Notes under the pieces: model-generated
Seen by the model: the letters and a program-made list of their open reading frames with translations, nothing else
Told to the model about the DNA's origin: nothing
Database searches by the model: none
Assembly (NCBI GenBank): GCA_963799395.1
Contig: CAWCWZ010000051.1
Span: 6,595-70,594, forward strand
DNA: 64,000 nt
DNA from: an uncultured Actinomycetes bacterium
GTDB lineage: Bacteria; Actinomycetota; Thermoleophilia; UBA2241
Direction: 5' to 3'
In this document: in pieces, positions 5,591 to 30,495 of the stretch
How the letters are laid out: each line of letters starts with the position of its first letter
Position numbering within the stretch: position 1 is the stretch's first letter
Made by a program: the position numbers and the translations under genes

Positions 5591-6077
5591 TCCCGCGCCG
5601 GGGCTCAGTCGCGCCCGGCCGGACGCCGTCTGCGTCGGCGTCGGTCAGGGCGAACATGAGCTCGCCGCGGCAGGCCGTGTCGCCGGCGACGGTGGCGCTC
5701 ACCTTGCCGCGGCCCACGGCGCTGCGGGCCATCGTGACCTCGACCGTCAGGTCGAGCGTGTCGCCCGGCACGACGACGCGCTTGAACCGCACCTTGTCGA
5801 TGCCGGCGAACAGGATGAGCTTGCCCCTGTTGGCCGGGTGCGAGAGCGCCGTCACGACGCCCGCCTGGGCGAGCGCCTCGACGATCAGGACGCCGGGCAT
5901 GACGGGATTGCCGGGGAAGTGGCCGGCGAACCACCAGTCGTCCGCGCGGACGAGCCGGCGGGCGTGGCAACGCTCGCCCGGGACGAGCTCGACGACACAG
6001 TCGAGCAGCAGGAACGGAGGGCGGTGGGGGATGAGATCCTCGATCTGCTCACGGGTGAGGGAAACGGTGGCGTTCAT
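5585..6077 (-). CDS. fabZ: 3-hydroxyacyl-ACP dehydratase
   Basis: [28 protein letters not shown]...[22 protein letters not shown]... hotdog-fold FabZ. ATG 6077 overlaps the anti-sigma stop (ATGA). The 3' end is unclear because the frame runs into fabH without a stop (see findings). Confidence 0.8.
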
Positions 6078-6475
6078 ACCTTCACCTCGCCCTCGTCGGC
6101 CTTGTGACCGTACTTGCGCTGCAAGCCGATGATCACGGCGGCGACGGCCAGACCGTAGTAGGCGTAGCGCCTGATGCGACGGGGCACGCGACCGGGCAGC
6201 ACGCCGCCGGTCGCGCTCGAGAGAGCGCGCTCCAGAGCCGACGGCTCGGGCTGCGCCTCGAGGGCCGTCATGACGCGGTCGGCAAAGCCGGCCGGCACGT
6301 CGACCGTGACCTCGCGGGTGGCCTGTAGCACGGCGCGCGCCGCCGCGATCCCTTGCAGCTCGGCGGCGCAGTCGCCGCAGAAGCTCAGGTGTCGCTGGAA
6401 CTCGACGACCTGACGGTCGTCGAGCTCGCCGTCGATGTACCGCTGGATGACCTCGCGGCAGGAAACGCAGTCCAT
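6074..6475 (-). CDS. membrane-anchored zinc-finger (zf-HC2) anti-sigma factor
   Basis: CxxC...H...CxxC pattern ([40 protein letters not shown]) and a C-terminal TM ([15 protein letters not shown]). Its start overlaps the sigma stop. Confidence 0.8.
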
Positions 6476-7053
6476 CAGGCCTCCTCGTCGATGCCGCCAC
6501 CGGCCTGCAGACGCAAACGCAGCGAGGTACGGCCGCGATGCACGCAGGCCTTGACCGTGCCGAGCGGCCGGTCGAGGGCGTCCGAGATCTCGCCGTAGCG
6601 CAGCCCGTAGAGGTCGCGCAGGACGAGCGGGAGGCGATAGTCGGGAGGCAGGTCGGCGAGCGCCCTCATGACGCGCGCGTAGCCGTCGCGGCGCAGGACG
6701 TCGGCCACCGGGTCGGCGACCGGCTCGGGCACGTCGGGCAGGGCGCCGTACTTTCGGTAGCGGCGCTGGTAGTCGATGATCGCGTTCATCGCCAGGCGGA
6801 AGAACCAGGTCGTGAACGTCGAGGAACCGCGAAACCCGTCGAGCTTCTGGTGCAGACGCAGGAACGCCTCCTGCGACGCGTCTTCGGCGTCGACGTGATT
6901 GCCCAGCAGGTTGTAGGCCATCGTGTAGACCATGCCCTGGTACCTTTCGACGATCCTCCGGAACGCCTCCCGGTCGCCCGCCGCCGCGGCCGCGATGTCG
7001 TGCGGGCTCGGTTCGGGGAGATCGGTGTGGTCCGGTACGTTAGACGGCGTCAT
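6475..7053 (-). CDS. ECF (sigma-70 family, RpoE-like) sigma factor
   Basis: 192 aa from MTPSNVPD. Region 2 ([37 protein letters not shown]) and region 4 ([41 protein letters not shown]). The ORF-track N-terminal extension looks like non-coding shadow. Confidence 0.85.
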
Positions 7054-7267
7054 CGGGCAAAAGGTTGCAGAGCTTCCTCGACTGATGGGACCGGATGCGT
7101 CCGGCGGCCGCGGGGCGGTCGTCGGGGCGTGGGGCATGAGTGTACACCGCGACGAGGCGGCGCGCGGGATCGCGATCACCCGGCCACCGGTTTGCCACGG
7201 AGCCGCGTACCGGCGCGCGGCTCGCGAAAGAGAGCGACCGACGTGAGCTTCGGGGGGTCGTGCCAGT

Positions 7268-7699
7268 CTACAAGAGCGGCTTGACGAAGACGCGCTGCTC
7301 CTTTTCGAGTTCGAAGCCGCAGCGCCGATAGGCGATGTCGGCCACCTCGCGCTCAAAGCGGGTGCGCACCCGCAGAAGGTCCACGCCGCGCTCCCGCGCC
7401 CAGCGTCCAACGGCTTCAATCAGCAGGCGGGCCGCGCCTCGGCGCCGGGCGGTCGCCGCGACGATCAGCCCGCCGAGCTCGACGTAGCGCTCGCTCACGA
7501 GGAGCTGCTTCTCGGCCCCGTGGATGAAGCCGACGACAGCGCCCCCGACCGTCTCGGCGACGAAGACGACGTCGCCGTCGCTGCCCAGCACCGCGCTCAG
7601 GCGCGGTTCGATCAGCGCGGTGTCGGTCGGGTACCCGAGCTCGGTCGCGAGGGCGGCGAGGGCGGGCGCGTCGCCCGCCCTCGCCGCCCGCACCGTCAC
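7268..7699 (-). CDS. GNAT family N-acetyltransferase
   Basis: C-terminal 143 aa of ORF 7268..8005 contain a GNAT fold (VGFIHGAEKQLL...ELGGLIVAATARRRGAARLLIEAV...RCGFE). Start GTG ~7699 or ~7693. Confidence 0.75.
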   Translation of the reverse strand: MTVRAARAGDAPALAALATELGYPTDTALIEPRLSAVLGSDGDVVFVAETVGGAVVGFIHGAEKQLLVSERYVELGGLIVAATARRRGAARLLIEAVGRWARERGVDLLRVRTRFEREVADIAYRRCGFELEKEQRVFVKPLL

Positions 7700-7763: not shown

Positions 7764-8640
7764 TCACGACCTCCCGTGCCCGTGCTGGTGCTCCGGCTCG
7801 TCCTCGGCGTGGCGCTCCTTGCCCGGCGGGTGCGCGTGCGGGTGCGAGTGCAGCAATGCGCCGTGGTGGTGGACGTGCTCGTGGATGAGATTGACCGAGA
7901 GCAGCATGTCGCGGTCGGCGAGCACGTCGCCGAGCGGTCCGTCGGCCGCCGGGCGGTGGTCCTCGCCCAAGACCACCGCCCTGTCGACCAGCCGCTCGAG
8001 GACATCGAGCTGGTGGGTGGCCACGACGATCGTCTTGCCGGCGCCGTGGAACTGCTCGAGCAGCTCTATCAGCCACTCCTGGGTGCGCGGATCGAGACTG
8101 TTGGTGGGCTCGTCGAGCATCAGCACCTCGGGGTTGATCGACAGCACCGAGGCCAGGGCGACCTTCTTCTTCTCGCCGCCGCTCAGATTGTACGGCGCCC
8201 GCTCGGCGAGCGCGGCAAGGCCGAGCATGGCCAGCGTGTCGTCGACGCGCGCCAGGATCTCCTCGCGCGGCAGATCGAGGTGCAGCGGCCCAAAAGCGAT
8301 TTCGTCGCGCACGGTGGGGTTGAAGAGCTGGGCGTCGGCGCTCTGAAAGACCATGCCGACACGGCGGCGAAAGCGCTGGGCCGTCGCTTCGTCTTTGAGG
8401 GCGCCGTCGTCGATGCGCACGCCGAAGGCCTCGACCGTGCCCTGCGTCGGCGGGGCGAGACCGGCCAGGACCTTGAGCAGGGTGGACTTGCCGGAGCCGT
8501 TGGCGCCGAGAATGGCGAGGCGCTCGCCGCGGTCGATCGCAAGATCGACCGCGGCGAGCGCCTCGACCCCCGGGGCGTACTCGTAGCCCACGCCGGCCAA
8601 GCGAAACAGGACGCCGGCGGGTTCGCGCCCGTCGTCGGGG
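7764..8640 (-). CDS. cbiO: ECF-type Ni/Co transporter ATPase with His-rich C-terminal tail
   Basis: Walker A GANGSGKST, signature LSGGEKKKVALASVL, Walker B LMLDEP, and tail HEHVHHHGALLHSHPHAHPPGKERHAEDEPEHQHGHG. It lies in the same frame as the end of the upstream T-component, so the 5' boundary is approximate. Confidence 0.8.
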
Positions 8641-9560
8641 CGGGTAGTCTCGCGCTCGGGCGCCGCGTCGTCGCGATCGCCGCCGTCGCGTGGCGTGCCG
8701 CACAGCGGCGCAACGGACGGTCCGGCCATCAGCGCGCCGCCCGCGGTGAGCTCGAACCAGACCAGGGCGACGAGTCCCACGGCCACGACGGCGCTCCAGA
8801 TGTAGTCGAGCCGCTGCAGACGCCAGGTGCTGAGCGTGCGGGCCTCGCCGGTATAGCCACGCGAGATCATCGCCAGGTAGACCTGTTCGCTCGTCGCCTG
8901 CGACTTGCCGAACGCGGCCGCCACGGTGGCCCCCAGGAAATGGCGGTCTTCGCCGCTCGACGACGCGGCCGACCAGCCGGCTCGTGCGGGCGACCGCCAT
9001 GTCCTGGACGAGGCTGACGAGCGTGAAGACGTAGCGATAGGCGACCACCAGCACAAAGGCAAAGCCACGCGGCACGCCCACGGCGCGTATCGCCTTGAGC
9101 AGCTCGGACCAGGGAGTCGTGAGGGTGAGCAGCACGCAAAGCGAGACCACCGTCGTGACCCGCAGCACGAGGCGGGAAAAGGCGAACAGGCCCGACGCGG
9201 TGACCGCGAGCCTGCCCGGCAGCGGCCAGAAGGGGGCGCCGTGTGACCACAGCGTCAGCACGGCGTGCCCGGGTGTGACGATGTTGAAGATCGGCCGGCG
9301 CCATGATCAGCCGCGGTGAAGAGCGGAATGAACAGCCAGGCGCGGACGGCGAACCGTCGCAGGCCGATACACGAGGCCGGTACGAGGGCCACCGCCAGCG
9401 CGAGCAGCACGAGCAGCACGGTCATCCGCGTGGCGAGGGCGGCGACCACGACCAGCGCCAGCAGGCTGACGAGCTTGACCCGCGGGTCGAGGCGTTGCAG
9501 CAGCCGGGACGACGAGCGAGCTCGTCGGCGACCATGGCGCGCTCGACCCAGGCAGCCAGC
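8640..9560 (-). CDS. cbiQ: ECF transporter transmembrane (T) component CbiQ/NikQ; at least two apparent frameshifts
   Basis: N-terminal segment LLQRLDPRVKLVSLLALVVVAALATRMTVLLVLLALAV is in the frame of ORF 9255..9731. Middle segment LLTLTTPWSELLKAIRAVGVPRGFAFVLVVAYRYVFTLVSLVQDMAVARTSRL is in the frame of ORF 7759..9261. C-terminal segment ATSEQVYLAMISRGYTGEARTL is in the frame of ORF 7764..9068. Confidence 0.7.
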
Positions 9561-9738
9561 GTGCCGAGCAGCCGGTCGGTGAACAGGCGCCGGGAGCGGC
9601 GCGGACGGGCCGGCCGCGCCGGCCCGTCCGCGCCGCTCGCCGGCGCGAGCAGCCAAGCCGGCGCCTCGTCGCCCGGACGGAGTGGGTCGCCGGCCGCAGG
9701 CGCGTGCGGCATCGGGCACGAGGCGACTCACTGTGCGG

Positions 9739-10806
9739 TCAGCCCTCGTGGCAGGCCGCGCTCAGAGCGCGCCGTCTACGGGTGGCGAGCCGACCTGTGC
9801 CTGAGCCGCCGTCTGAGTGCGAACCGCCGCCCGGTGGCGCAGCCTGATCACCGAGCCAGACGATCGCCGAGAGCACCGCCACGCCGACCACGGCGCTTAC
9901 GACATAGGAGACGACGGTCCACGACGCCGCTGGCGCCGTTCCAGCTGTAGTCGGGCAGCAGACCGTGCCAGTGGCCGCCCAGGCGGGCGAAGCCCTTGGG
10001 GATGTAACCGATGCGGTTGCGCAGCTCGCTACTGTCCCACTCGGCAAAGGCGCCCCCGCTGGCAAGCAGGCCCAGGGGCACGGCCGCGATGAACACTACC
10101 AGCAAGGCCACGATCCAGCGGCGTCGTATGGGTTGAGTCGTGCCGCCTGCTGCGAACAACTCGGGGCTCTGCCGGCGCAGCACGGCAAACACGCCGACCG
10201 TGAAGGCCGCCTCGATGGGACCCACGACCAGGGCGTGCGACCCGACCATCGCCGGAAACGTCGTCTTGAAGCCGTAGGGGAAGTACTGGGCGACGCCGTT
10301 GACCGTGTGGAGCAGCGGCTGGATGCCGAGCTCGATGCTGTTGAGAAAGGCCGCCGCTACCAGGCCGCAGTACGCGCCGATGCCGGCGGCCCAGAGGCGC
10401 CGCGACGACTGCAGGTCGCTGTCGCCGGCCACCAGGCGGTAGATGGCAAGGCCGGCGTAGGGCATGACGATCGCCATGTTCAAGACGTTGACGCCGAGCG
10501 TGAGCACGCCGCCGTCACCGAAGAAGAAGGCCTGGATCACGAGGGCCGCGCTGACCGCCAGGCAGGCGATGTCGGGCCCGGCGATCACGGCGATCAGCAC
10601 CGCCCCGACGGCGTGCGCCGTCGTGCCTCCAGCCACGGGCACGTTGAGCATCATGACGAGAAACGAGAAGGCCGCGCCGAAGGCCAGCACGGGGATCATC
10701 TTGGGCTCCGAGAGGAGCTGTTTTGTGCGCCGGTTGGCCCGGTACCAGACCGGCACGGTGATCGCCCAGCCGGCGGCGATCGTCTCGGGTCCCAGATAGC
10801 CGTCGG
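9739..10806 (-). CDS. cbiM: ECF Ni/Co substrate-capture component NikM/CbiM fused to a C-terminal PDGLE (NikN-like) domain; apparent frameshift near 9960
   Basis: Hallmark N-terminus MHIPDGYLGPETIAAGW and CbiM TMs. The C-terminal region (FAEWDSSELRNRIGYIPKGFARLGGHWHGLLPDYSW) is PDGLE-like. A final TM (WTVVSYVVSAVVGVAVLSAIVWLG) is in the frame of ORF 9739..10065. Confidence 0.8.
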
Positions 10807-10808
10807 GT

Positions 10809-11287
10809 ATGTGCATGACTCCCCCTGGTCGTTGCCCGGTTGCGGCCTTGTCGTCAGTCCGGCGTTGCTTGGGCCGGCCCCGGCACTCGCGGCAGAGGCC
10901 GAACACGGTCATGCGCGCTTCGCTCACCAGAAAGCCGTCGGCATCGAGCAGCTCGCGCCGCACGGGTTCGAGGAGCCCGTCGTCGAGATGGCCGACCGCG
11001 CCGCAGCCCTCGCAGACGAAGTGATGGTGCACCGGCGAGGGGGCGACCTCATAGTACGTCGCGACCCCCGCGAGCCTGGTCTCCTGGACGAGCTCGAGGC
11101 CGACCAGCAGCTCGAGCGTGCGGTAGACGGTGGAGACGTTCACTTCGGGCAGGGTCTGCTGCACCTCGGCGGCGATCTCCTCGGCGGTCCGGTGACGGCC
11201 GCCGCGGCGCACGGCCTCCCACACCGCCACGCGCTGCGGAGTGAGGCGGTAGCCGGCCTTGCGGATGGTCTCGCGGGCGTGGTGCAT
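10809..11287 (-). CDS. Fur-family metal-responsive transcriptional regulator (Nur-like); 3' end in-frame with cbiM, likely indel
   Basis: MHHARETIRKAGYRLTPQRVAVWEAV...VSTVYRTLELLVGLELV...HHHFVCEGCG...LCRECRG is the Fur/Zur/Nur pattern. An alternative ATG lies at ~11329. A TGA in the -1 frame sits immediately before the cbiM ATG. Confidence 0.75.
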
Positions 11288-11305
11288 GGTGCGACCGTAT
11301 CGCAG

Positions 11306-11322
11306 TCGCAAGCGAGTTGCAA
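11306..11322 (-). promoter_or_regulatory. Nur-box-like operator TCGCAA-N5-TTGCAA
   Basis: Plus strand reads TCGCAAGCGAGTTGCAAG. This matches the Streptomyces Nur-box tTGCaa-N5-ttGCAA with one mismatch. It lies 19-35 nt upstream of the preferred regulator start, at the head of the nik operon. Confidence 0.4.
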
Positions 11323-11448
11323 GTGCCATGTTGTTGCCGCTCCGGCCGCCGACCGCGACATGCGGCCACCGCAGAGTCGAACGGGCGCACCGGCGTCGAT
11401 CCGACCCTCTGGGGAATAGTGTCCGAAGCACACCGAGAGAGGGTAGCC

Positions 11449-11727
11449 ATGGTAGCCGCACACGCCAATCTGCTGGACGAAGTGCTGCATGCGATGACGC
11501 AGCTTGACCCCATGGTCTATTTCATGATCGTCGTCGTGACCATCGCCTTCGGGATAACGGCCATGGTGCTGGTCGAGCTCTTTCCCGGGCGTCCCGGCAC
11601 AGAGGCCCAGACGCCACCGGCCGAGGCCGACGAGAACGACCGCGAAGGTGCAAAGACCACGACCGTCGCAGCCGACAGAGCCCGCGCGGCTCTGAGACCT
11701 ACTTCGCCGGCAGGGCGGCGTTGATCG
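11449..11727 (+). CDS. hypothetical small membrane protein
   Basis: MVAAHANLLDEVLHAMTQLDPMVYFMIVVVTIAFGITAMVLVELFPG... with a strong RBS (GAGAGAGGGtagccATG). It is divergent from the Nur-like gene. Coding status is uncertain in high-GC DNA. Confidence 0.35.
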
Positions 11728-13365
11728 AAAGCGGCACCTGCACCGCGGTCGCGGCTTCTTCGACTAACACCTCTATCTGCCAGCGGCCCTCGACCGAGAG
11801 TTCAAGGCCGCTGCCCTGCCAAACGCCGCCCGGGCCCTTGCTCAGGACGAGGGTCGAGGGGGGCACCGTGGCCTGCCCGGGCAGCGAGAAGTCAAGCTGG
11901 ACGCTGCGCAGGTCCGTGAGCGGCCGCCCTGAGGCATAATCGCTCACGGTCGCCGTGAACTGGTTGGAGCCGACGGTCCCCGGGCTCACGACCAGTCGCA
12001 CGCGGACCGTGGTCGCGTAGTCACTGCCCGAAAGCACCACCTGGTTCGATCCCGACGCCCTGGCGGCCGTCGCCGCCTCCCTGCCCGTGGCAACGCCGCC
12101 GAGCACACCGGTCACCGCCAGGATGGCCACTCCCAGGACGAGCTCATTGCGCAGCGTGCGCCGAAAAGGAGGCAGAGCGTCGTCTTTTGCCAAGGTGGGC
12201 ACCTGCAGGAAGCGATTGCGCGCCCCCAGGGCGACCAGCGCCACAAAGAGCGCCAGCTTGACCAGCAGGAGACGGCCGAAGCTCGTGTGCAGGAGGTTGG
12301 CCGGCGCCCCGACCTCGGCCACGGCGCGAGACACACCGGTGAGCAACACGATGGCCAGGCCGATGGTAGCGACCGTCGAGAAGCGCCGGCCGGCAGCCGC
12401 CCGCTTGGCGCCCGGCAGCCCGCGCAGCCCGACCAGCAGCCGGCCAGGCCACCGACCCACACCCCGACCCCCATGACGTGCAGCCACTGCACGGTCAAAT
12501 TGAAGAAGCGATAGGGGGAGGGGCCGTTGGCGTGAGTCTCCCAGATGACCGTCATTACGGCAAAGGCGGCCGCGCTGCCCAGCGCAGCCAGCGTGGGACG
12601 GCAGGGCAGGGCCGCCGTGGCGGCCACCGCCAACCCGCAGAGGACCAGCACGGCGGTGAGCTGGGCCACCATCACGAGGCCCTCGGGTGTGCCAAAGAGC
12701 GGCAGCAGCGAGGGGGCACGCACGATGGCGCGCTCCGTCAGGATGAAGGTCGATACCCCCACCGCGGCCAGCGCCCAGCCCAGCCACAGCAGGGTGGGCC
12801 CTCCGGCGGGCAGTTTGCCCCGCCACACAAACCAGCACGTGCAGGCCGCCCCGAGAAGCAGGACCAAGCCCGCCCACAGCAGCCAGCGCCCGGCAGCCTG
12901 TGTGCCAGTCAGCCAGGGCGAGGTGCTGACGAACTTGCCGAAGGGCGCCACCTTGCCGATGTTGGCGACCCCGACCCCGAAGGCATAGGCGCCGGTCACA
13001 TAGTGGCCATCCAAGGCAGAGACCGTGTGCCAGTCCACCGTGTAGACGCCGTGAGGCAGGGGCCGGCTGAGCACGATGACGAGCTGCTCGGAGTTGCTGG
13101 GCACAGCATGGGAGGGCGAGGCACCGGGTACCGCCTGGCCCTGCGTGTTGACCACCTGGGCGCCCGACAGCGTCGGATCGACCGGCTCGGTGAAGGTGAG
13201 CAGGATCTGCTGCGGTGAACGCGCTACCGTGCCGTTGATGGCCGGGGAGGCATGAATCAGCAGGGCGTGCGCCGCAGCCTGTGGGGCCGGCAGCGCAAGC
13301 CACAGCCCGGCCACCAGCCCGACAAGGGCGACGGCGCGAGCCGTCACACGGGCGTGGGCGCGCAC
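11699..13365 (-). CDS. copper resistance/uptake CopC-CopD fusion (YcnJ-like) with C-terminal YtkA-like domain; apparent frameshift near 12350
   Basis: N-terminus has a signal peptide plus CopC (AHALLIHASPAINGTVARSPQQILLTFTEPV...VYTVDWHTVSALDGHYVTGAYAF). CopD TMs follow. The C-terminal part lies in the frame of ORF 11699..13303. Confidence 0.8.
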
Positions 13366-13371
13366 CTGACC

Positions 13372-14063
13372 TCAGGCTTCAACGCGGTCGTCGGCCCCGT
13401 GTGACTGACGAACGGCCGACGGCGACCTTCTGGTCAGAAGCGCGACGCAGGCCACGACCAGGCCAAGCGCGCCGACCACCATGCCGATGATGCCGAAGAG
13501 CTGCGCGCGCGACGCCTGCGACGAGCTCGCCAGACGTGGCAGGGCGACGGCGACGCGCTGTGAGAGCTCGGTCATGGTCGGGGTCTGGAGGGGAAACTCA
13601 ACGGCCGTGGGGTCCTGCACCGGGTTGAACGTCGTGGGACTGCTCGTGAAACTCTGGTCTATCGTCTGCGAACCGATCGTGCCGGTGAAGTGAAACGTGT
13701 AGTCACCGGGGCGCGGTGGGGAACAGCCAGGCACGATAGTCGCCGGGTGTGCCCAGAGCCGGTGTCCGGATCGAACGTCGGCTCGAGGCCGAACACCATC
13801 GACTGGCTGCCGAAGATGACGGTCACGTGGAGGGTGGTGCCGAGATTGACGACCGGCTTGCCGCTCTCGAGGTAGGCCAGCACGAGCTGGACGCTGTTCT
13901 CCTGGCCTGCGTAGGCCGGTTCGTTGCCCCAGCCCACCAGGAAGTGGTAGGCGCCGACGTCGCGCGCCTCGTGAGCGAACGCCGGAGCGGCGGTCGCCGA
14001 GAGTGCGATTGTAGCCACGGCGAACGCCGCGGACAGCCGCCACCCAAGCCTTCGTCTTTTCAC
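13372..14063 (-). CDS. ycnI: YcnI-like (DUF1775) copper-binding protein with C-terminal TM anchor; apparent frameshift near 13720
   Basis: N-terminal part (VKRRRLGWRLSAAFAVATIALSATAAPAFAHEARDVGAYHFLVGWGNEPAYAGQENS...) is in the frame of ORF 13659..14513. C-terminal part (GDYTFHFTGTIGSQTIDQSF...LFGIIGMVVGALGLVVACVALL) is in the frame of ORF 13372..14268. GTG start ~14063 with GGGGG RBS. Confidence 0.75.
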
Positions 14064-14456
14064 GTCCGTACCCCCATCGCCGTCGGCAGACTTTCGCTCG
14101 CGGCCGCCCGGCCGACCGCGGCCCGAACGCGAGGTCGACGGTCGTGGCACGACGAACACCCCCAAAGACCGGCCCGCCCGATGACCGGACGAGCGACGAT
14201 GCCCCGTCGGCATGGCTGGCTGCGAACGACTCCGCGGTGTTTTGCCCACCGCGCGCCGTGTCGAGCACGTTGACCGTCTGAGCGCGACCAGTCGAAGGCG
14301 TCGCTGACCGCCGAGCGCATCCCCCGGCTGGCGCGCGGACGGTCGCTCCGGGCAGGCGGGCTGCTGTAACCTGTCACCCGACAAGAGCGATGCCTCCCAA
14401 AGCAGGGCCTGCTTCCGTGGGAGCCGCTCGTCCGGCAGCGGCGCGAGGGGGTCGAG

Positions 14457-15005
14457 ATGAGAGTGGTGGGGGTCCTGGTCGTTGCCATGGCGCTGGTCAT
14501 CGGAGTCGTCCACAGTTCACTCACTGCAAGGCCATGGCCCGCGTCGTCGGGCTCGACGATGAGCATGGGCGGCTCGGCCACGGCATCCGCCGGCGTTCGC
14601 GATGGCCCACCCGCACGACCGCGGCCGCACGCCCACGCCGATGCGCTGCTACTGCGACCGCCCGGGCCGAGGTCGGGGTCGCGCTGCCACTCGCCGCCGC
14701 CGGCGTCCTGCTGTTCGTCAGCCGGCGAAGGGGAGACCAGCCGGGCTCTGGCCGTACTCATCGGTGTGCTCGGCGCCGTCGCCATGCTCCTGCCGACGCG
14801 TGCTGATCGGCGTCTGTGCGCAGAGCAGCGCGATCTGCAACACCACCATGCGGCCCATCCTGCTGGCGGCCGGGGGGGCGACCGTGGCGCTCGGCCTTGT
14901 CACCCTGGTCAGAAACGAGTTGAGCAGCGGACCGGGGAAGGACGGGCAGCCGCTCGCCGTTCAGGCCGACCGCGCTTCAGCCGGCCGACGAGGCCGCCAT
15001 TGTGA
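14457..15005 (+). CDS. hypothetical membrane protein (uncertain; possible non-coding)
   Basis: ATG with good RBS (GAGGGGGtcgagATG) and two hydrophobic helices (VVGVLVVAMALVIGVV; ALAVLIGVLGAVAMLL). No recognisable family. It overlaps the frame-shifted start of the ABC permease. Confidence 0.2.
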   Translation: MRVVGVLVVAMALVIGVVHSSLTARPWPASSGSTMSMGGSATASAGVRDGPPARPRPHAHADALLLRPPGPRSGSRCHSPPPASCCSSAGEGETSRALAVLIGVLGAVAMLLPTRADRRLCAEQRDLQHHHAAHPAGGRGGDRGARPCHPGQKRVEQRTGEGRAAARRSGRPRFSRPTRPPL

Positions 15006-19869: not shown

Positions 19870-20733
19870 TCAGCCGGCCGGGATCAGCCGCTCGCGCCGC
19901 AGGTACGCAACGCTCGCCGACAGGCCTTCGGGCGTGAGCACCTCGATGATGGTGCTGACCCCGGACCGCCGAGCCGCCGCCAACACCGCGCCCGCGTCCA
20001 CCACGCCGCAGCCCAGGGCCAGGTGAGAGTCAACGCCGGTCGCGCCGTCCACCGGCCCCGCGTTGTCGTGCAGGTGCACGTGGCGGAGCTGCGCCTGCGG
20101 ATCGCGCAGGAACTCCGCGAGCGCCTCGCAAGCCGCGGCGTGCCCCGTGTCGAGCGCCAGGCCGAGCGCGCCAAGGTCGAGGTCGCCGGGGCGCGCGAAA
20201 TGGCTGTGGTCGGCACCCATCAGGTTCTCGAGCGCCACCTCCACGCCGTACTCGTCCTGAAGGGCCGCCAGCTCGACGATGCTCCGCTGGAGCGCATCGC
20301 GAACGGCGCCGCTGCGCACGATGGGTGTGAGGTCGTAGTCGGGGTGCAGCACGTAGACGGCGGCGCCGACATCTGCGGCCGCCTCGAGGTGGCGGCGGTG
20401 CACGGCGACCGCGGCCTTGCGGGCCGCCTCGGACGGGTGCCCCACGTCGGCGTTCTCCCAGGGGCCGTGCACGGTCAGCCGCAGGCCGCTCTGCACGACG
20501 GCCCGCCGGTTGGCCGCCCTGATCAGACTGTGGTTGTAGTCGCTGTAGACCTCGGCGAGCTCGGCGACGGATGCGATGTGGGCCAGAGCGGCCGCCAGCG
20601 GCTGGTCGAACCAGGCCGTGGCGGCGAGGCCGATGTCGGGGGGCAGGAGCACGCGGCGGCCTACCTCCGACTCACCTGGACGGCACCCGGGTCCTGGCCG
20701 AGCCTGCACCTCAGAAGGGGTACGTCTTGCCAC
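19870..20733 (-). CDS. sugar phosphate isomerase/epimerase (xylose isomerase-like TIM barrel, AP endonuclease 2 superfamily); possible CbiR-like cobamide-remodeling enzyme
   Basis: Intact 287-aa ORF with TIM-barrel metal-ligand pattern (VHGPWE...VLHPDY...ALENL...HVHLHDN). The CbiR suggestion rests on context (cobQ, DUF4430, corrinoid uptake genes) and on fold family only. Confidence 0.6.
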   Translation of the reverse strand: MARRTPSEVQARPGPGCRPGESEVGRRVLLPPDIGLAATAWFDQPLAAALAHIASVAELAEVYSDYNHSLIRAANRRAVVQSGLRLTVHGPWENADVGHPSEAARKAAVAVHRRHLEAAADVGAAVYVLHPDYDLTPIVRSGAVRDALQRSIVELAALQDEYGVEVALENLMGADHSHFARPGDLDLGALGLALDTGHAAACEALAEFLRDPQAQLRHVHLHDNAGPVDGATGVDSHLALGCGVVDAGAVLAAARRSGVSTIIEVLTPEGLSASVAYLRRERLIPAG

Positions 20734-24503: not shown

Positions 24504-25509
24504 ACGCGCCAGCCGCGAACGATCTCAGCAAGCCGCCGGCCACTGCCGCCTCGTCTGGGAGTCGCGTGCCGGCCTTCCGCGTGGCGCCGGCGATGCCGAG
24601 ACCGACCTCCAAGCGGCGACTCGAGCCGCGTCGCCGCGGCCTTGCGCGCCGCCAGCCCGTCGCCATCGTCGCCTACGTGGGCGCGCTCACCCTCGCCGCC
24701 CTGGTGCTCGTCAATCCCCTGCAGGTCACGGCGCTACTGGCGCTCTGCCTCGTCGTCCTGGTCGCCGCCGGGCGCGGCCGGGCGGCCTGGCCCTATCTCA
24801 AGACGGCTCTCTACATCGGTGGTTTCCTGGCCATCGTCAACCCGCTGATCAGCCGCAGCGGCAGCACCGTGCTCTGGCAGCTCCAGCTTGGCCCCTTCGA
24901 CGTGCCGATCACCATCCAGGGAATCGCCTACGGTGTGACGACGGCGCTGCGCATCATCGCCGTGATCACGGCCTTCGCCCTCTTCTCCTCGTCCTCGACC
25001 CCGACGACCAGCTCGGCCTCATGAGCCGGCTGTCGTTTCGCACCGGTCTTGTGATCTCGTTGGCCTCCCGGCTCTTGCCGGTGTTCTCGCGCGACGCGGC
25101 GCGCATCTCCAATGCCCAGCGCGCTCGCGGGGTAGAGCTCGACGCCGGCCGTCGACGCGCCCGCGTCGCGGCGCGCGTACCTTTGCTGGCCGCGCTCCTC
25201 GCTCAGAGCCTCGAGCGGGCCGTCGACGTCGCCGCCTCCATGGAGGCACGCGGCTTCGGCGCCCGCGACCGTTCGCACTGGTCGCACGGGCGGCGCTGGA
25301 GAACTGCCGACCTGGTCACCACGGCGGCGGCTCTGCTTGGCGCGGCGGCGCTGCTCGGGGGCCTCTTCGCCGGGGCCTTCTCGTACAACTTCTATCCCTT
25401 GCTGGACGACCCCTGGAGCCAGCTCGCCGGCATCTGGTGGCTGCTCGCCTTCGCGGCGCTCATCGTTCCCGCACTCTGGACCCTGCCGTGGCGACGCTCG
25501 CGCGACTGA
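24500..25509 (+). CDS. ecfT: ECF transporter T component (EcfT/CbrU-like); apparent frameshift near 24990
   Basis: First segment ALYIGGFLAIVNPLISRSGSTVLWQLQLGPFDVPITIQGIAYGVTTALRIIAVITAFALFS is in the frame of ORF 23663..25024. Second segment RLSFRTGLVISLASRLLPVFSRDAARISNAQRARGVEL... is in the frame of ORF 24298..25509. GTG start overlaps the upstream TGA (GTGA). Confidence 0.75.
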
Positions 25510-27161
25510 CCGACGTCACCTACTGGTACCCCGGACGCGAGAGGCCGGCTCTCCGCGACGTCTCGCTACGGATCGGTCCAGCCGAGGTGATCCTCGTGGT
25601 CGGCTCCTCGGGCAGCGGCAAGTCGACCTTGTTGCGCTGCCTGAACGGTCTCGTGCCGCACTTCCACGGCGGCACCCTCGCCGGGCACGTGGAGGTCGAC
25701 GGCAGGGACACGCGCACGTCACACACACACGAGCTGGCCCATGCCGTCGGTCTCGTCTTCCAGGATCCCGAGAGCCAGTCGGTGATGACCACAGTCGAGC
25801 GTGAGATCGCCTTTGGCCTCGAGAACAGGGGGGTGCCGAGCGCTGCGATCAGCCGCCTCGTCGAAGAGGCGCTTATTCTCCTCAGCCTGTCGCACCTGCG
25901 ACACGCCTCGCTCTCGACACTTTCGGGTGGAGAGCTGCAGAAGGTCGCTCTGGCCGCGGTCGTGGCCACCCAGCCGCAACTGCTGCTCCTGGACGAGCCG
26001 ACTTCGCAGCTCGACCCCGTGAGCTCCGAGGAGCTGCTCGCCGCCATCAGGCGACTCGCGGAGGACACGGGCTCGACCATCATCCTCGCCGAGCATCGCA
26101 CGGAGCGCTGCCTGCACCTGGTCACCCGCGTGCTATATATGGATGACGGCGTTCTGGCAGAAGACGCCGATCCGCAGGACTTCGCGGACTGGGCGCTGGA
26201 CGGACACCGCGGCTTGCTGCCGCCGGTCGCTCGCCTCTTCGCCCGCAGGACCAGCGACCGCTCGGCCGGCGCCGGCGACCCGGATCTGCCGATGACGGTC
26301 AAGGACGCTCGCCGTTTGCTTGTGACCCACGAAGACCCGCAGCCGCGTCGCAGCCCGGCCACGTCATGGAAACCCTCCGGCGGCATCGTCCTCGAAGCGC
26401 GCAAGCTGGCGATCGGCTACGACCCCGACGAGCCGCTGCTCGAGGGCTTGAGCTTCGGTCTGGCGCGCGGCGAGGCAGTGGCCCTCATGGGCGAGAACGG
26501 CGTGGGCAAGTCGACGCTGATCCGTCACTTCATCGGCTTGGCGCGGCCGCTGGCCGGCAAGGTCGTGCTGCTCGACCGCGACGTCTCCGAGATCACCGTG
26601 GCGGCGGCGGCACGTGACTGCGCCCTCATGGGTCAGAACCCGAACGACCTGTTCGTGAAGGACACTGTGGCCGAGGAGATCGCCTTCACGCTCGACGCAC
26701 TGGGTATCACCGGCGAGCGGCACGACTCCCTGACGGCCAAGATCGTCGCCGAGCTTGATCTGGAAGCTCTCCTGCAGCGGAACCCACGCGACCTGTCGGG
26801 CGGCGAGCGCACGCGGGTCGCGCTCGCCGCCACCGTCTGCGGAGACCCCACCATGGTCGTGCTCGACGAGCCCACGAGAGGCATGGACGCACGGCACAAG
26901 GCCGAGCTTGCCGCGACGATACGCCGCTGGGTCAGTGCGGGCCGCTGCGTCGTGCTCGTCACGCACGACGTGGAGTTCGCGGCGAGCGTCGTCGAGCGGG
27001 TGATCGTGCTCGGCGACCGCGGCCTGCTGGCCGACGGGCCCGTGGCCGACGTGCTCGACGGGTCGCTGTTCTTCTCGACGCAGATCAACCGTCTGTTCCG
27101 CCGCGTGCTTCCCGGCATCCTGCGCGAGGACGAGATCCAATGGGGAGAGGGAGCCTCGTGA
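25488..27161 (+). CDS. ecfA: fused duplicated ECF transporter ATPase (EcfA-EcfA', CbrV-like)
   Basis: Intact 574-aa ORF with two complete ABC cassettes (GSSGSGKSTLL / LSGGELQKVALA / LLLLDEP and GENGVGKSTLI / LSGGERTRVALA / MVVLDEP). Confidence 0.9.
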   Translation: MATLARLTDVTYWYPGRERPALRDVSLRIGPAEVILVVGSSGSGKSTLLRCLNGLVPHFHGGTLAGHVEVDGRDTRTSHTHELAHAVGLVFQDPESQSVMTTVEREIAFGLENRGVPSAAISRLVEEALILLSLSHLRHASLSTLSGGELQKVALAAVVATQPQLLLLDEPTSQLDPVSSEELLAAIRRLAEDTGSTIILAEHRTERCLHLVTRVLYMDDGVLAEDADPQDFADWALDGHRGLLPPVARLFARRTSDRSAGAGDPDLPMTVKDARRLLVTHEDPQPRRSPATSWKPSGGIVLEARKLAIGYDPDEPLLEGLSFGLARGEAVALMGENGVGKSTLIRHFIGLARPLAGKVVLLDRDVSEITVAAAARDCALMGQNPNDLFVKDTVAEEIAFTLDALGITGERHDSLTAKIVAELDLEALLQRNPRDLSGGERTRVALAATVCGDPTMVVLDEPTRGMDARHKAELAATIRRWVSAGRCVVLVTHDVEFAASVVERVIVLGDRGLLADGPVADVLDGSLFFSTQINRLFRRVLPGILREDEIQWGEGAS

Positions 27162-27961
27162 GCCCGCAAGAGCCCAAGGCTCTGCCTGGTCGCCTGCGGC
27201 GCGATCTCGTCGCCTGGCTGCTGCTGGCCGTTCTCGGTGTCGTCGCGCTGGTGGCGGCAGGCTATGCCGTCCTCGACCCCGGCGCCGTCAACTGGGGCTT
27301 CCTCAGTCTCGTACTCATCGCCGCCGTCGTCGGCTTCGCACTGGTCGCCTATGGCCTGCGCGATTCGAGCGCCAGCGAGCTGTCGCTGATCGCCGCCCTG
27401 GCGGCCCTGGCCACGGCCGGTCGTGTGCTCTTCGCCTCACTGCCCAACTTCAAGCCGGTGACCTTCATCGTTCTCGTCTCCGGCGTCGCTCTGGGGCCGG
27501 CTCCGGGCTTCATGGTGGGCGCGACGACGGCCGTGGTCTCCAACCTGTTCTTCGGTCAGGGGCCGTGGACGCCCTGGCAGATGCTCGCCTGGGGACTGGT
27601 CGGCGTAGTGGGCGGGCTCATGGGCATCAAGGGCAGGCGGCCCCGGCGCTGGGAGCTGGTGCTGGTCGGAGCGGCGCTGTCCGTCGGCTTCGACTGGTTC
27701 GTGACCCTCTGGATGTATCTCTCCTACACTCCGCACACCTGGCCCGCGCTCGTCGCGCTCTACGGCCAGGGCCTGCCTTTCGACGTGTCGCACCTGAGCG
27801 CCACGGCCATACTGGCGGCGCTGTTCGGTCCCCGGGCGATCGCCATCATCGCGCGTTTCCGCGCCCGGACGAGCGTGAGGTTCCTGCCGGCGTCACCAGC
27901 GCGCCGTGCACTGCCCAGCCTTGACGGTCCGCAGCGATTCGACAATGCTTCTCAGCCATGA
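27140..27961 (+). CDS. ECF transporter substrate-specific (S) component (CbrT-like candidate)
   Basis: Intact 273-aa protein with 6 predicted TMs. Overlaps the ecfA stop. Family assignment within S-components is not possible by eye. Confidence 0.65.
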   Translation: MGRGSLVSPQEPKALPGRLRRDLVAWLLLAVLGVVALVAAGYAVLDPGAVNWGFLSLVLIAAVVGFALVAYGLRDSSASELSLIAALAALATAGRVLFASLPNFKPVTFIVLVSGVALGPAPGFMVGATTAVVSNLFFGQGPWTPWQMLAWGLVGVVGGLMGIKGRRPRRWELVLVGAALSVGFDWFVTLWMYLSYTPHTWPALVALYGQGLPFDVSHLSATAILAALFGPRAIAIIARFRARTSVRFLPASPARRALPSLDGPQRFDNASQP

Positions 27962-28931: not shown

Positions 28932-29438
28932 TCATTGTCGCGCGATGGCCCCGCCATGGGCGCGCGTCGCCAGGCCCTCGAGATCGAGATGATCGAGGTC
29001 CCTGCGGATGGTCATCTGCGACACGCCGAGCAACGCGCTCAAAGACGAGACGCGCACGGCCCGCCGCTCGTCGAGTAGCGCGATGATGTGTGCGCGGCGC
29101 TCGGCGGCAAGAGTTTGCGGCGCCCTGCCCGCCTGTTGGTGCGACCCCACCGGCCGCTGCTCAGGGGGTTCGTCACGCGAGCACCGGTCTACGGCGGCAA
29201 ACACTTCGGGCCCACCCGCCCGCAACGCCACGATATCGGCCAGCGGGACGCGCCAGTGACCGGCGGACGTCTGGAAGGCGTCCGGCAGCAGGCCACTCTC
29301 GAGGGCCGCCCGCATGACGCCGGGATGCACGGCAAGTATGCGAGCGGCGTCTCGTAGCGAGCGCAATCCGGCCTCGTGCTCGATGACGTTGGCGATCTCC
29401 GCTCCCTCGGTAGCGTTCACCCAGCGATGCGGCATCAT
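28932..29438 (-). CDS. DNA-binding protein with excisionase-type HTH (HTH_17-like) plus C-terminal DeoR-type HTH
   Basis: LRSLRDAARILAVHPGVMRAALESGLLPDAFQTSAGHWRVPLADIVALRAG followed by HIIALLDERRAVRVSSLSALLGVSQMTIRRDLDHLDLEGLATRAHGGA. Start taken at MMPHRW. Confidence 0.55.
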   Translation of the reverse strand: MMPHRWVNATEGAEIANVIEHEAGLRSLRDAARILAVHPGVMRAALESGLLPDAFQTSAGHWRVPLADIVALRAGGPEVFAAVDRCSRDEPPEQRPVGSHQQAGRAPQTLAAERRAHIIALLDERRAVRVSSLSALLGVSQMTIRRDLDHLDLEGLATRAHGGAIARQ

Positions 29439-29478
29439 TCCCTCCTTTTCTGGCAACGGCCACGGCTCCTTGCGCGCA

Positions 29479-30075
29479 CTAGAACTCGATCCCGGCGCGT
29501 GCCTGCACACCGCGTTGGTAGTAGTGCTTGACCTCATGCATCTCGGTGACCAGGTCGGCCCGTTCGATCAAGGCCGGTGGCGCGTAGCGGCCGGTGATCA
29601 CGAGCTCGACTGCCGGCGGCCGCGCTTCAACCAACTCGAGGCAATCGCGCGCCGAGAGCAGGCCGAACCAGACCGCGACGTCGAGCTCGTCGAGCACGAC
29701 GAGGTCGTTCTCGCCTGAGATAAGCGCGGCGGCGGCGCGGGCGTGGCCCTCGAAGGCGTGCCGGCGGTGCACCGTGGTGACCTCGTCGCGATGGATGCAC
29801 CCGGGATCGCCGAACTGCTCGACGGTGATCAGCGGGTTGTCGCGCAACGCGGCAATCTCGCCGTAGGAGCTGGCCTTCATGAACTGACCGACCCAGACCC
29901 GCTTACCATGACCGGCGGCCCGCAGGACCAGGCCGAAGGCGGCCGTAGTCTTGCCCTTGCCCTCACCGGTGTAGATGTGCACGTAGCCGCGGCCTGTCGC
30001 AGCTCGAGCGCCAAACTCAGCGCTCCCAGACGTTCGGTCGAGCTTCGCAGACAGCGTATGCGCGGTCGTGGGCAT
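29479..30075 (-). CDS. cobO: cob(I)yrinic acid a,c-diamide / cob(I)alamin adenosyltransferase
   Basis: MPTTAHTL...GRGYVHIYTGEGKGKTTAAFGLVLRAAGHGKRVWVGQFMK...VVLDELDVAVWFGLL...ELVITGRYAPPALIERADLVTEMHEVKHYYQRGVQARAGIEF. RBS AAGGAGA precedes ATG 30075. ORF-track N-terminal extension discounted. Confidence 0.9.
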   Translation of the reverse strand: MPTTAHTLSAKLDRTSGSAEFGARAATGRGYVHIYTGEGKGKTTAAFGLVLRAAGHGKRVWVGQFMKASSYGEIAALRDNPLITVEQFGDPGCIHRDEVTTVHRRHAFEGHARAAAALISGENDLVVLDELDVAVWFGLLSARDCLELVEARPPAVELVITGRYAPPALIERADLVTEMHEVKHYYQRGVQARAGIEF

Positions 30076-30159
30076 GGCTTCTCCTTTGTGGCGATGGAGT
30101 CCGTGGACGATGCGAGGAATGCGCGGCACGAGGAATGGCTCTGGGGGAGTGGGCGGAGG

Positions 30160-30200
30160 AGAGTCGCAACAACACGGTGAGCCGGCCTGATCGGCCGGGA
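30160..30200 (-). terminator. putative riboswitch expression-platform hairpin (attenuator) in cobO leader
   Basis: Minus-strand CCGGCCgatcaGGCCGG stem-loop followed by CUCACCGUGUUGUUG. It lies between the B12 box and the cobO RBS. Confidence 0.35.
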
Positions 30201-30269
30201 CCGAAGTGTTTCTCGAGCGCCGATGTGAAGGCACGCCGGTCCTCCCGCGAGGTTCGCCGTCAGCGTCTC

Positions 30270-30425
30270 CTCGGGGCCCGTCTCCTGGCTTGCCGCCTGA
30301 AAGCCTACTGGTCGCGCCTTCCCGTCTCTCTCTTGAGAGACAGTGGCATGCCGGCGACGTTCGTCAGCGGTCACAGTTGCGGGGCAGCACCGGTCTTGCA
30401 CCGGTTTCCGTGTGCCTCCGAGGCA
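30270..30425 (-). ncRNA. cobalamin (AdoCbl) riboswitch
   Basis: Minus-strand sequence reads GGTGcaagaccGGTGCTGCCCCGCAACTGTGAccgc...GCCACTG...GGGAAGGC...AGGCggcaAGCCAGGAGACGGGCC. It contains the conserved CCCGCAACUGU, GCCACUG and GGGAAGGC elements and a near-consensus B12 box (AGCCAGGAGACGGGCC). It lies upstream of cobO. Confidence 0.85.
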
Positions 30426-30495
30426 GTTACTTGAGAAACATTATCAAATGGCTCTCGCGTCGGTCAAGCGCCGGGCGGGCAGTTTGGCGCCGGGT

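Follow-up and report, generated by a model that had tools for sequence, protein, structure and literature searches.

The window analyzed here is a 64-kb (64,000-nucleotide) stretch of contig CAWCWZ010000051.1 from an uncultured Actinomycetes bacterium in the class Thermoleophilia. It contains a 17-base palindrome, TTGCAA-CTCGC-TTGCGA, at the promoter of an operon that begins with the gene for a Fur-family regulator and continues with nik(MN), nikQ, and nikO, the genes of an energy-coupling factor (ECF)-type importer. We predict that this palindrome, referred to below as box 1, is the operator of an autoregulated, metal-repressed fur-nik(MN)QO operon, and put the probability of this reading at roughly 0.64. 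In the proposed mechanism, box 1 and an adjoining weaker palindrome, box 2, would cover the −35 and −10 elements of a leaderless actinobacterial promoter from which transcription starts at the A of the regulator's MHHARE start codon. The product of the first gene, the Fur-family protein, would bind there in its metal-loaded form as one or two dimers and keep RNA polymerase off. Under metal scarcity, the apo-protein would dissociate from the DNA, and regulator and importer would be made together. The outcome would be negative feedback on uptake, with Ni(II) the most likely effector and Co(II) a possible one.

A conserved palindrome at the fur-nik promoter

Box 1 (TTGCAACTCGCTTGCGA) lies at positions 11322..11306 on the minus strand, which carries all of the genes concerned, and consists of two six-base half-sites separated by a five-base spacer (6-5-6); on the plus strand it reads TCGCAA-GCGAG-TTGCAA. 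The minus strand around it reads, from 5′ to 3′, ...cggcaacaacatggcac TTGCAACTCGCTTGCGA ctgcgaTACGGTcgcacc ATG CAC CAC GCC CGC GAG..., so that box 1 ends 18 nucleotides (nt) 5′ of the ATG that begins MHHARE and falls within the open reading frame (ORF) that would start from an ATG farther upstream. The initial annotation of this DNA had described a Nur-box-like site just 5′ of the preferred start of a Fur-family gene, and that description holds. Box 1 is the only site in the 64-kb window with no more than one mismatch to TTGCAA-N5-TTGCAA (0 expected; 0 of 100 shuffles contained one), and it is also the only site with no more than two mismatches (0.19 expected). A position weight matrix (PWM) built from 41 orthologous boxes, with the window excluded, gave box 1 a score of 20.8 bits and the runner-up site in the window 12.5 bits. 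However, the PWM score alone is worth only about p = 0.03, because 20.9 bits occurred in one of 30 Markov-random windows, and the decisive evidence for box 1 comes from its position and conservation. Matches to the PWM or to the degenerate pattern TYGCRA-N5-TYGCRA at 20115 and 52352 were rejected as candidate sites, being within ORFs and at chance level.

Conservation was assessed across orthologous promoters. A protein search returned more than 120 cluster representatives with 58-98% identity to the regulator, and scans of genomes and metagenome contigs yielded 160 loci, to which look-ups of two close homologues added 8 more. These loci include 49 distinct promoters of the clade in which the regulator begins with MHHAR (the MHHAR clade; protein identity 58-100%). 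The best palindrome match lies 35-37 nt 5′ of the start codon in all 49. The gene nikM is found 3′ of the regulator gene in 48 of the 49 loci, with the remaining contig too short to tell, and it follows the regulator in every genome locus above 46% identity. Within the left half-site, T1, T2, G3, and C4 are invariant (49/49) and are followed by R5 and A6 (47/49), while the right half-site consists of T12 (48/49), Y13, G14 and C15 (both 49/49), A16, and R17, giving a clade consensus of TTGCRA-N5-TYGCAR. The five positions between the half-sites are poorly conserved. Therefore, with two high-information blocks of 6 nt around a low-information spacer of 5 nt, conservation itself recovers the 6-5-6 architecture, with TYGCRA as the half-site.

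The conserved block has a sharp upstream boundary. Sequence beyond about −52 from the start codon (−17 from box 1) is unconserved, with information near zero, and an alignment of 11 promoters has no similarity 5′ of the block, even between the window and relatives with 87-90% identical coding DNA. Within the block, the window differs from the related locus L083 at three positions, all outside the half-site cores. The 5′ neighbors also vary among loci with at least 97% regulator identity, with CopC/CopD in the window, DUF4418/FtsX in L081, and ABC exporters in L083. Since the 5′ neighbors differ and the downstream gene is constant, the regulator gene is the only constant transcription-factor partner of the box. 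Judged from this pattern of conservation, box 1 is under selection. A Nur-like 17-mer could in principle have arisen by chance, as the Markov-random window that matched its PWM score illustrates, but near matches were absent from the shuffles, and the site stands exactly at the promoter of the Fur-family/nik operon in a position kept by 49 relatives; comparison with these relatives leaves a chance origin effectively refuted.

Promoter geometry and the start codon

Box 1 is superimposed on the elements of a promoter. Its left half, TTGCAA (11322..11317), occupies the position of a −35 hexamer, matches TTGACA at four of six bases, and is 17 nt from a TAnnnT −10 hexamer, TACGGT, which ends 6 nt 5′ of the ATG in the window and 6-8 nt 5′ of the ATG or GTG in relatives. 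In Mycobacterium tuberculosis, Cortes et al. found TANNNT centered 7-12 bp upstream of 73% of transcription start sites, often preceded by CGN and with no conserved −35 element (PMC3898074). Direct reading found no Shine-Dalgarno sequence 5′ of the MHHARE ATG. A TAnnnT motif 6-8 nt from the start codon, together with this lack of a Shine-Dalgarno sequence, indicates a leaderless fur-nik transcript, predicted to start at the A of the ATG at 11287. With +1 placed there, box 1 spans −35..−19, its −35-like TTGCAA −35..−30, box 2 −18..−2, and TACGGT −12..−7. A scan of the locus with the Escherichia coli promoter consensus found nothing, which is uninformative for an actinobacterium with 70% GC, and the TANNNT criterion was used instead.

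Weaker units abut box 1 on both sides. After box 1, the promoter profile continues as T19 G20 C21 G22 n T24 A25 n n n T29 n G31 C32. This region contains box 2, in which T19, G20, C21, and G22 are present in 42-46 of the 49 promoters, G31 in 46, and C32 in all 49. The PWM score of box 2 is the sixth best in the window, and its C21 and G22 may be the actinobacterial CGN extension of the −10 rather than part of an operator. On the 5′ side, the degenerate box 0 contains a conserved GCrAc (GCnA) 17 nt 5′ of the GC core of box 1 in the window and the 49 relatives, with G, C, and A at −14, −13, and −11 from the start of box 1 in 40, 44, and 37 of 49 promoters, respectively, and nucleotide homology between the window and L081 starts exactly at 11339. 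Box 0 is the weakest element; it could act as a third operator unit, in degenerate form, or as an element of the promoter that lies upstream.

The downstream ATG, preferred in the initial annotation, proves to be the true start of the regulator. All 120 homologue clusters begin with (M/V)HH[AGT] (117 anchored and 3 read directly), eight of them with GTG, so that translation starts at this position throughout. The His and Ala codons vary synonymously, which shows selection on the protein, and the invariant TAnnnT is placed for initiation here. The upstream ATG (11329..11327) was rejected as a start codon: it is CTG, GTG, or absent in relatives, and L081, L083, L001, and L003 carry an in-frame TAG four codons 5′ of the MHH start, where the window has TAC.

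Candidate binding protein and metal

The box resembles that of the nickel-responsive regulator Nur. Streptomyces coelicolor Nur recognizes tTGCaa-N5-ttGCAA and binds the nikA and nikM promoters in a nickel-dependent manner (PMC2691836). Its structure (PDB 3EYY) contains a Ni-site formed by His70, His72, and His126 that An et al. (2009) describe as 'conserved only in Nur orthologs' and credit with both nickel specificity and 6-5-6 recognition; an H86A mutant still binds DNA (PMC2691836). The regulator in the window aligns with 3EYY over residues 8-137 (E = 1.4e-20), with Glu, Arg, and Arg in place of His70, His72, and His126, and across the MHHAR clade these positions are E, R/K/H, and R/Q. In the M-site, His33, His88, and His90 are kept, His86 is replaced by Pro, and a His is added at 89, so that positions 88-90 are His-His-His. 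Elsewhere, His81 becomes Glu and Glu101 becomes His, which is residue 100 of the 144-amino-acid protein. The Cys4 site is kept, with Cys at Nur-equivalent positions 93, 96, 133, and 136 in two CxxC pairs, and the equivalents of His33, Glu81, His88-90, and His101 are invariant in the MHHAR clade. Because the Ni-site is absent, the likeness to Nur would lie in the DNA site and the regulatory logic and not in the sensing site. The Nur helix segment STVYRTLELL is identical in the window protein; the recognition helix was rejected as a sign of Nur-like specificity, as Bacillus-type Fur has a near-identical TVYRTLELL, with one flanking difference, and uses another box. No NCBIfam equivalog cutoff is reached by the regulator. 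Among 80 genome loci, His/His/His does occur at the Ni-site positions, in about 45 proteins of Nocardioides, Streptomyces, Frankiaceae, and other Actinomycetota, and in their 12-kb loci these proteins have no nikM within 6 kb and no box near their own gene.

Several observations weigh against a metal-responsive operator bound by its own regulator. On the alignment with Nur, in which all three Ni-site His are absent, the regulator is not a Nur orthologue, and its similarity is spread over the family (80 bits to Bacillus-type Fur, 77 to Nur, 73 to Campylobacter jejuni Fur, and 72 to PerR). The 49 orthologous promoters share ancestry and do not amount to 49 independent trials, and neither the PWM scan nor the degenerate pattern reveals a credible second site in the 64-kb window. 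The left half-site has the spacing and partial sequence of a −35 element, and CGN before TANNNT is a known promoter feature (PMC3898074) that coincides with C21 and G22. The transporter points to no single metal: TtNikM2, the closest solved structure to the M subunit of the importer, binds cobalt in addition to nickel, and nickel is also carried by CbiMNQO systems (PMC3945884). Finally, cbiZ, cobD/cbiB, and cobQ-like genes are found 3-6 kb upstream in L081 and L082 (29..3281).

The promoter-like features raise the possibility that the conserved block is only a strong leaderless promoter, with TTGCAA as the −35 element and CGN-TAnnnT as the −10, and that there is no repressor and the palindrome is incidental. 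The scan for E. coli-type promoters neither supports nor excludes such a promoter. However, the right half of box 1 (T12 Y13 G14 C15 A16) is no less invariant than the left half, and it lies in the spacer between the −35 and −10, a stretch on which sigma factors place no sequence demands; M. tuberculosis promoters lack even a conserved −35 (PMC3898074). G31 and C32, 3′ of the −10, are conserved too. In addition, sister clades hold the half-sites elsewhere, either over the −10 beside a separate TTGACA or with 4-nt spacing, and the same palindrome precedes a gene for a NiCoT permease in an unrelated promoter context. A promoter without a repressor is therefore very improbable.

These related clades also bear on which protein binds the box. 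In the MTHHAT/MSHHAT sister clade (46-53% identity), the promoter has a canonical TTGACA −35 and a single TTGCAA-TAnAn-TyGCAa box, located at the position of box 2 in the window and with the −10 as its spacer. In Dehalococcoidia-type relatives (42-45% identity), TTGCAA-N4-TTGCAA (6-4-6) stands at the −35 of fur-nikM. Half-sites with 4-nt spacing occur in L009, L012, L019, L046, L076, L077, L140, L147, L151-L153, L157, and L164, and Dehalococcoidia-type and other Chloroflexota loci often have an extra TTGCAC/TTGCGC half-site upstream. In Chloroflexia/Ktedonobacteria, a NiCoT permease gene (HX4DH motif) lies 5′ of a related regulator with the N terminus MHQY or MHQH (L051, 4430..6477; L071, 183..2140; and L024), and a perfect or one-mismatch TTGCAA-N5-TTGCAA is located ~190 nt upstream of the permease (TTGCAAAAAATTTGCAA in L051 and TTGCGAAAGATTTGCAA in L071). 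Three transporter and promoter contexts with the same half-site, each with a linked Fur-like gene, are the signature of a cis-encoded autoregulator, and this comparison makes a strong but indirect case that the box is bound by the Fur-family regulator encoded beside it.

Alternatively, a genuine Nur orthologue with His70, His72, and His126 could be encoded elsewhere in the genome and bind the box, leaving the local Fur-like protein with another role. Box 1 fits the Nur consensus, S. coelicolor Nur binds a nikM promoter (PMC2691836), and Nur-type genes, which are common in Actinomycetota and never linked to nikM, would act in trans. In contrast, the box accompanies the regulator gene in both Thermoleophilia and Chloroflexota, with its spacing and placement following the regulator clade, and no true Nur gene is present in the window or within 6 kb on either side in any MHHAR-clade locus. 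We also know of no Nur in Chloroflexota. Binding by a distant Nur is consequently improbable, and the regulator encoded by the first gene remains the preferred candidate.

Both the N terminus of the regulator and the transporter bear on the metal. All proteins of the MHHAR clade start with an invariant Met-His-His, and those of the sister clade with Met-(Thr/Ser)-His-His. N-terminal Met is usually kept when His comes next and cleaved off when Thr or Ser does, and by this rule both clades are predicted to mature to an X-His-His N terminus. His at Nur position 101 co-occurs with the N-terminal MHH motif. The last 55 residues of the importer ATPase in the window include 13 His; its tail, IHEHVHHHGALLHSHPHAHPPGKERHAEDEPEHQHGHGRS, contains 10-16 His in members of the MHHAR clade, and the sister clades lack it. 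Both features, the X-His-His N terminus and the His-rich ATPase tail, typify nickel-binding proteins and leave room for cobalt. The M subunit matches TtNikM2 (4M58) with 183 bits (E = 6e-53) versus 59 bits (E = 5.7e-15) for RcCbiM (5X3X), and the Met1, His2, and His67 of TtNikM2 are conserved (MHIPDGYL... and GGTTAHA); NikM needs its exact N terminus, where Met1-His2 form part of the nickel site (PMC3945884). An Rfam scan revealed neither a riboswitch nor any other RNA at the nik locus, and its sole match in the window is a cobalamin riboswitch at a distance of 19 kb.

Nickel, or nickel with some response to cobalt, is mildly favored as the effector on the grounds that the characterized user of this box is Ni-specific, the M subunit is TtNikM2-like, there is no B12 riboswitch here, and the ATPase tail is His-rich. 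Cobalt alone appears considerably less probable. An alternative that deserves some weight, although a minor share of it, is that the encoded Fur-like protein does bind the operator but responds to Co (or to Fe or Zn) and controls a CbiMNQO-type cobalt importer. The NCBIfam name of the M subunit is 'cobalt transporter CbiM' (NF008873, 261 bits, cutoff 225), the cobalt binding of TtNikM2 and the lack of the Nur-specific Ni-site would suit this alternative, and B12 salvage genes and a cobalamin riboswitch are present elsewhere in the window. The cbiZ, cobD/cbiB, and cobQ-like genes upstream in L081 and L082, two very close relatives, lend cobalt weak support from context. However, the nik operon has no cobalamin riboswitch 5′ of it, even though the window uses one for cobO, and the structural matches of the M subunit point to NikM. 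Nur, the sole regulator characterized for this box, is specific for Ni. In L081, unrelated genes stand between the cobalamin genes and the operon, and neither L083 nor the window has cobalamin genes at that position.

The cobalamin riboswitch (RF00174, 82 bits; 30258..30457, minus strand) lies directly 5′ of a CobA/CobO/BtuR-type corrinoid adenosyltransferase gene (29479..30234, minus strand; PF02572, E = 3.5e-59), which is followed by an ORF with a DeoR-type helix-turn-helix (28932..29537, minus strand). A duplicated ECF-type ABC ATPase of 574 amino acids and then an S-component-like membrane protein (DUF6580/ECF_trnsprt) are encoded at 25437..27961 on the plus strand. The pair, which is convergent with the riboswitch-cobO unit, could import corrinoids or a vitamin.

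The operon and its relation to known systems

The proposal in the initial annotation that the Fur-family gene heads a nik operon whose ATPase has a His-rich tail is borne out by relatives, in which the order fur-nik(MN)-nikQ-nikO(-GNAT) and the tail are conserved (Table 1). The regulator matches PF01475 over its full length, and the corrected protein, which ends ...CRECRGPAQATPD*, is 97-98% identical to the 144-amino-acid proteins P0001, P0002, and P0004. The product of nik(MN) has the N terminus MHIPDG, and the end coordinate of the gene is approximate because of 1-nt insertions at ~9922 and ~9853. The frameshifts leave PDGLE weak in the window (E = 0.0063), with PF13190 present in relatives. 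Intact genes in relatives encode Fur proteins of 144 amino acids, NikMN of 350 (with CbiM and PDGLE domains), NikQ of 327-329, NikO of 344-346, and GNAT proteins of ~160. NikO matches models for ECF ATPases. The N-like part, Q, and O of an ECF-type importer are encoded in one operon. The window is collinear with the region in L081-L087 that holds the GNAT gene, which is probably the last gene of the operon. In L001 and L081, GNAT and the ATPase are fused or were called as one gene. The GNAT gene is followed by genes for an extracytoplasmic function sigma factor and a zf-HC2 anti-sigma factor (together 6074..7699, minus strand), an order conserved in L081-L088.

Table 1. Coordinates of the fur-nik promoter elements and operon genes in the 64-kb window
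Feature	Position	Strand	Evidence
Box 0, degenerate unit CGGCAA-CAACA-TGGCAC abutting box 1	11323..11339	−	Conserved columns
Box 1, TTGCAA-CTCGC-TTGCGA	11306..11322	−	Unique in window; conserved columns; PWM 20.8 bits
Box 2, cTGCGA-TACGG-TCGCAc, weaker palindrome around the −10	11289..11305	−	Conserved columns; PWM 7.3 bits
−10 hexamer TACGGT (TAnnnT)	11294..11299	−	T24, A25, and T29 invariant (49/49)
Start codon ATG (MHHARE) and predicted transcription start	11285..11287	−	Homologue N termini; upstream TAG
Fur-family regulator gene, 144 amino acids once the missing G is restored	10854..11287	−	PF01475, E = 1.7e-24
nikM Shine-Dalgarno sequence GGGGGAG, inside the 37-nt fur-nikM spacer	10819..10825	−	Direct reading
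nik(MN), ECF S component with C-terminal PDGLE/N-like part	9760..10816	−	CbiM, E = 2.7e-53
nikQ, ECF T component, split over three frames	8726..9719	−	CbiQ matches in three ORFs
nikO, ECF ATPase with His-rich C-terminal tail (~7767..7886)	7764..8729	−	ABC_tran, E = 2.2e-32
GNAT acetyltransferase gene, directly after nikO	7268..7699	−	ORF; orthologues in L081-L087 carry PF00583

Several genes in the window appear fused or broken. The Fur ORF lacks a stop codon, and its reading frame continues into nikM (ORF 9848..11461, 537 amino acids). A Fur-NikM fusion protein was nevertheless rejected: relatives at 97-98% identity stop after 144 amino acids at ...TPD*, a G is missing near 10877 from a G-run at the 3′ end of fur, NikM requires a free Met1-His2 N terminus, and unrelated genes in the window repeatedly show 1-nt indels. 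When the window is compared with L083 and with L081, such indels are located at ~10877, 9922, 9853, 9505, 9309, 9294, 8961, 8739, 5632, 5367, and 5132, those at 9505, 9309, 9294, and 8961 being in nikQ, and a plot of GC content at third codon positions (GC3) changes frame in step with them. Between 5000 and 13400, they break fur, nikMN, nikQ, fabA/KASIII-like genes, and CopC/CopD (two frames). Since the two relatives are independent and have intact genes, the fusion ORF and the fragmented nikQ are assembly artifacts. The window looks like a noisy, probably long-read, assembly and not like a set of pseudogenes, and apparent gene fusions and pseudogenes in it are not to be trusted.

Just 5′ of the nik promoter and in the same direction lies a copper cluster (11699..14513, minus strand) that consists of a frameshifted CopC-CopD-YtkA fusion gene and an upstream ORF without a Pfam match. 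A 91-amino-acid membrane ORF, also without a Pfam match, is divergent from the nik promoter (11449..11724, plus strand).

Among known systems, Nur shares with the window regulator its membership in the Fur family and would share with it a TTGCAA-type 6-5-6 site and the promoter of a nikM-type ECF importer as a target, and the expected logic is the same, with a metal-loaded repressor that shuts off uptake. The two differ in that Nur lacks the N-terminal Met-His-His that is invariant in the window clade, and that Nur-type genes are unlinked to nikM whereas the window regulator is the first gene of its presumed target operon. Neither sodF, which belongs to the Nur regulon, nor sodN was seen within the 64-kb window. 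Rodionov and colleagues in 2006, and Zhang and colleagues in 2009, reportedly described nikMNQO and cbiMNQO operons controlled by NikR or a B12 riboswitch. These operons have the same architecture of M (with N-like part), Q, and O and the same metal-repressed uptake, but the window locus has no NikR gene or riboswitch, and its regulator belongs to the Fur family and is encoded inside the operon. Classical Fur, Zur, and PerR are likewise dimeric metal-dependent repressors with autoregulation and operators that lie over the −35 and −10, where adjacent or abutting sites also suggest more than one dimer. Their operators are of the n-1-n type and AT-rich, unlike the 5-nt-spaced, GC-cored TYGCRA half-sites in the window (PMC2691836). 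In Mycoplasma genitalium, Fur controls a transporter annotated as CbiMNQO and a His-rich lipoprotein linked to nickel accumulation (PMC8566771). This system provides another case of non-Nur, Fur-family control of an ECF-type system implicated in nickel uptake, but it belongs to an unrelated lineage, uses another operator, and has a regulator gene that does not head the transporter operon.

Nickel sites that employ the N-terminal amine and His are found in the amino-terminal Cu- and Ni-binding (ATCUN) motif, in the MHE of HypA, and in the N-terminal ligands of RcnR and NmtR. The ATCUN motif combines a free α-amine with His at position 3, and the regulator clade also has His at position 2, as a feature of its sequence. 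To our knowledge, no Fur-family protein uses a site of this kind, and searches of the open-access literature turned up Nur and M. genitalium Fur but no account of this clade or of MHH at the N terminus of Fur proteins. The Met1-His2 of NikM (PMC3945884) similarly pairs a free N terminus with His, like the predicted X-His-His of the regulator clade. What appears to be new, from these comparisons, is a nikM-linked Fur subfamily, widespread in uncultured Thermoleophilia, that has a Nur-type operator without the Nur nickel site and an N-terminal His-His. It is possible, though on present evidence doubtful, that the nikM- and NiCoT-linked regulators form a distinct Ni (or Ni/Co) sensor lineage of the Fur family. 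Such a lineage would recognize Nur-type half-sites without the Nur Ni-site and would sense metal through an ATCUN-like X-His-His N terminus, for which the exact leaderless start would be needed, together with a His-rich regulatory site formed by the equivalents of His33, His88-90, and His101. If this is true, 6-5-6 recognition would be independent of the Ni-site, contrary to An et al. (2009), and sensing of nickel by an N-terminal amine, as in RcnR and NmtR, would have arisen independently in the Fur fold.

The analysis predicts an operator-regulator pair for Ni or Co homeostasis in Thermoleophilia and Chloroflexota. We know of no metal regulator that has been characterized in these abundant, mostly uncultured soil and peat bacteria. 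The Nur-type operator would be used well beyond Nur orthologues, by Fur-family proteins without the site held to define the nickel specificity of Nur, and the link that An et al. drew between structure and function, from the Ni-site to 6-5-6 recognition, is now directly testable. With the start codon fixed, the native N terminus to be preserved in expression constructs is defined. The box and the N-terminal MHH signature could be used together to annotate these regulators and their regulons in metagenome-assembled genomes.

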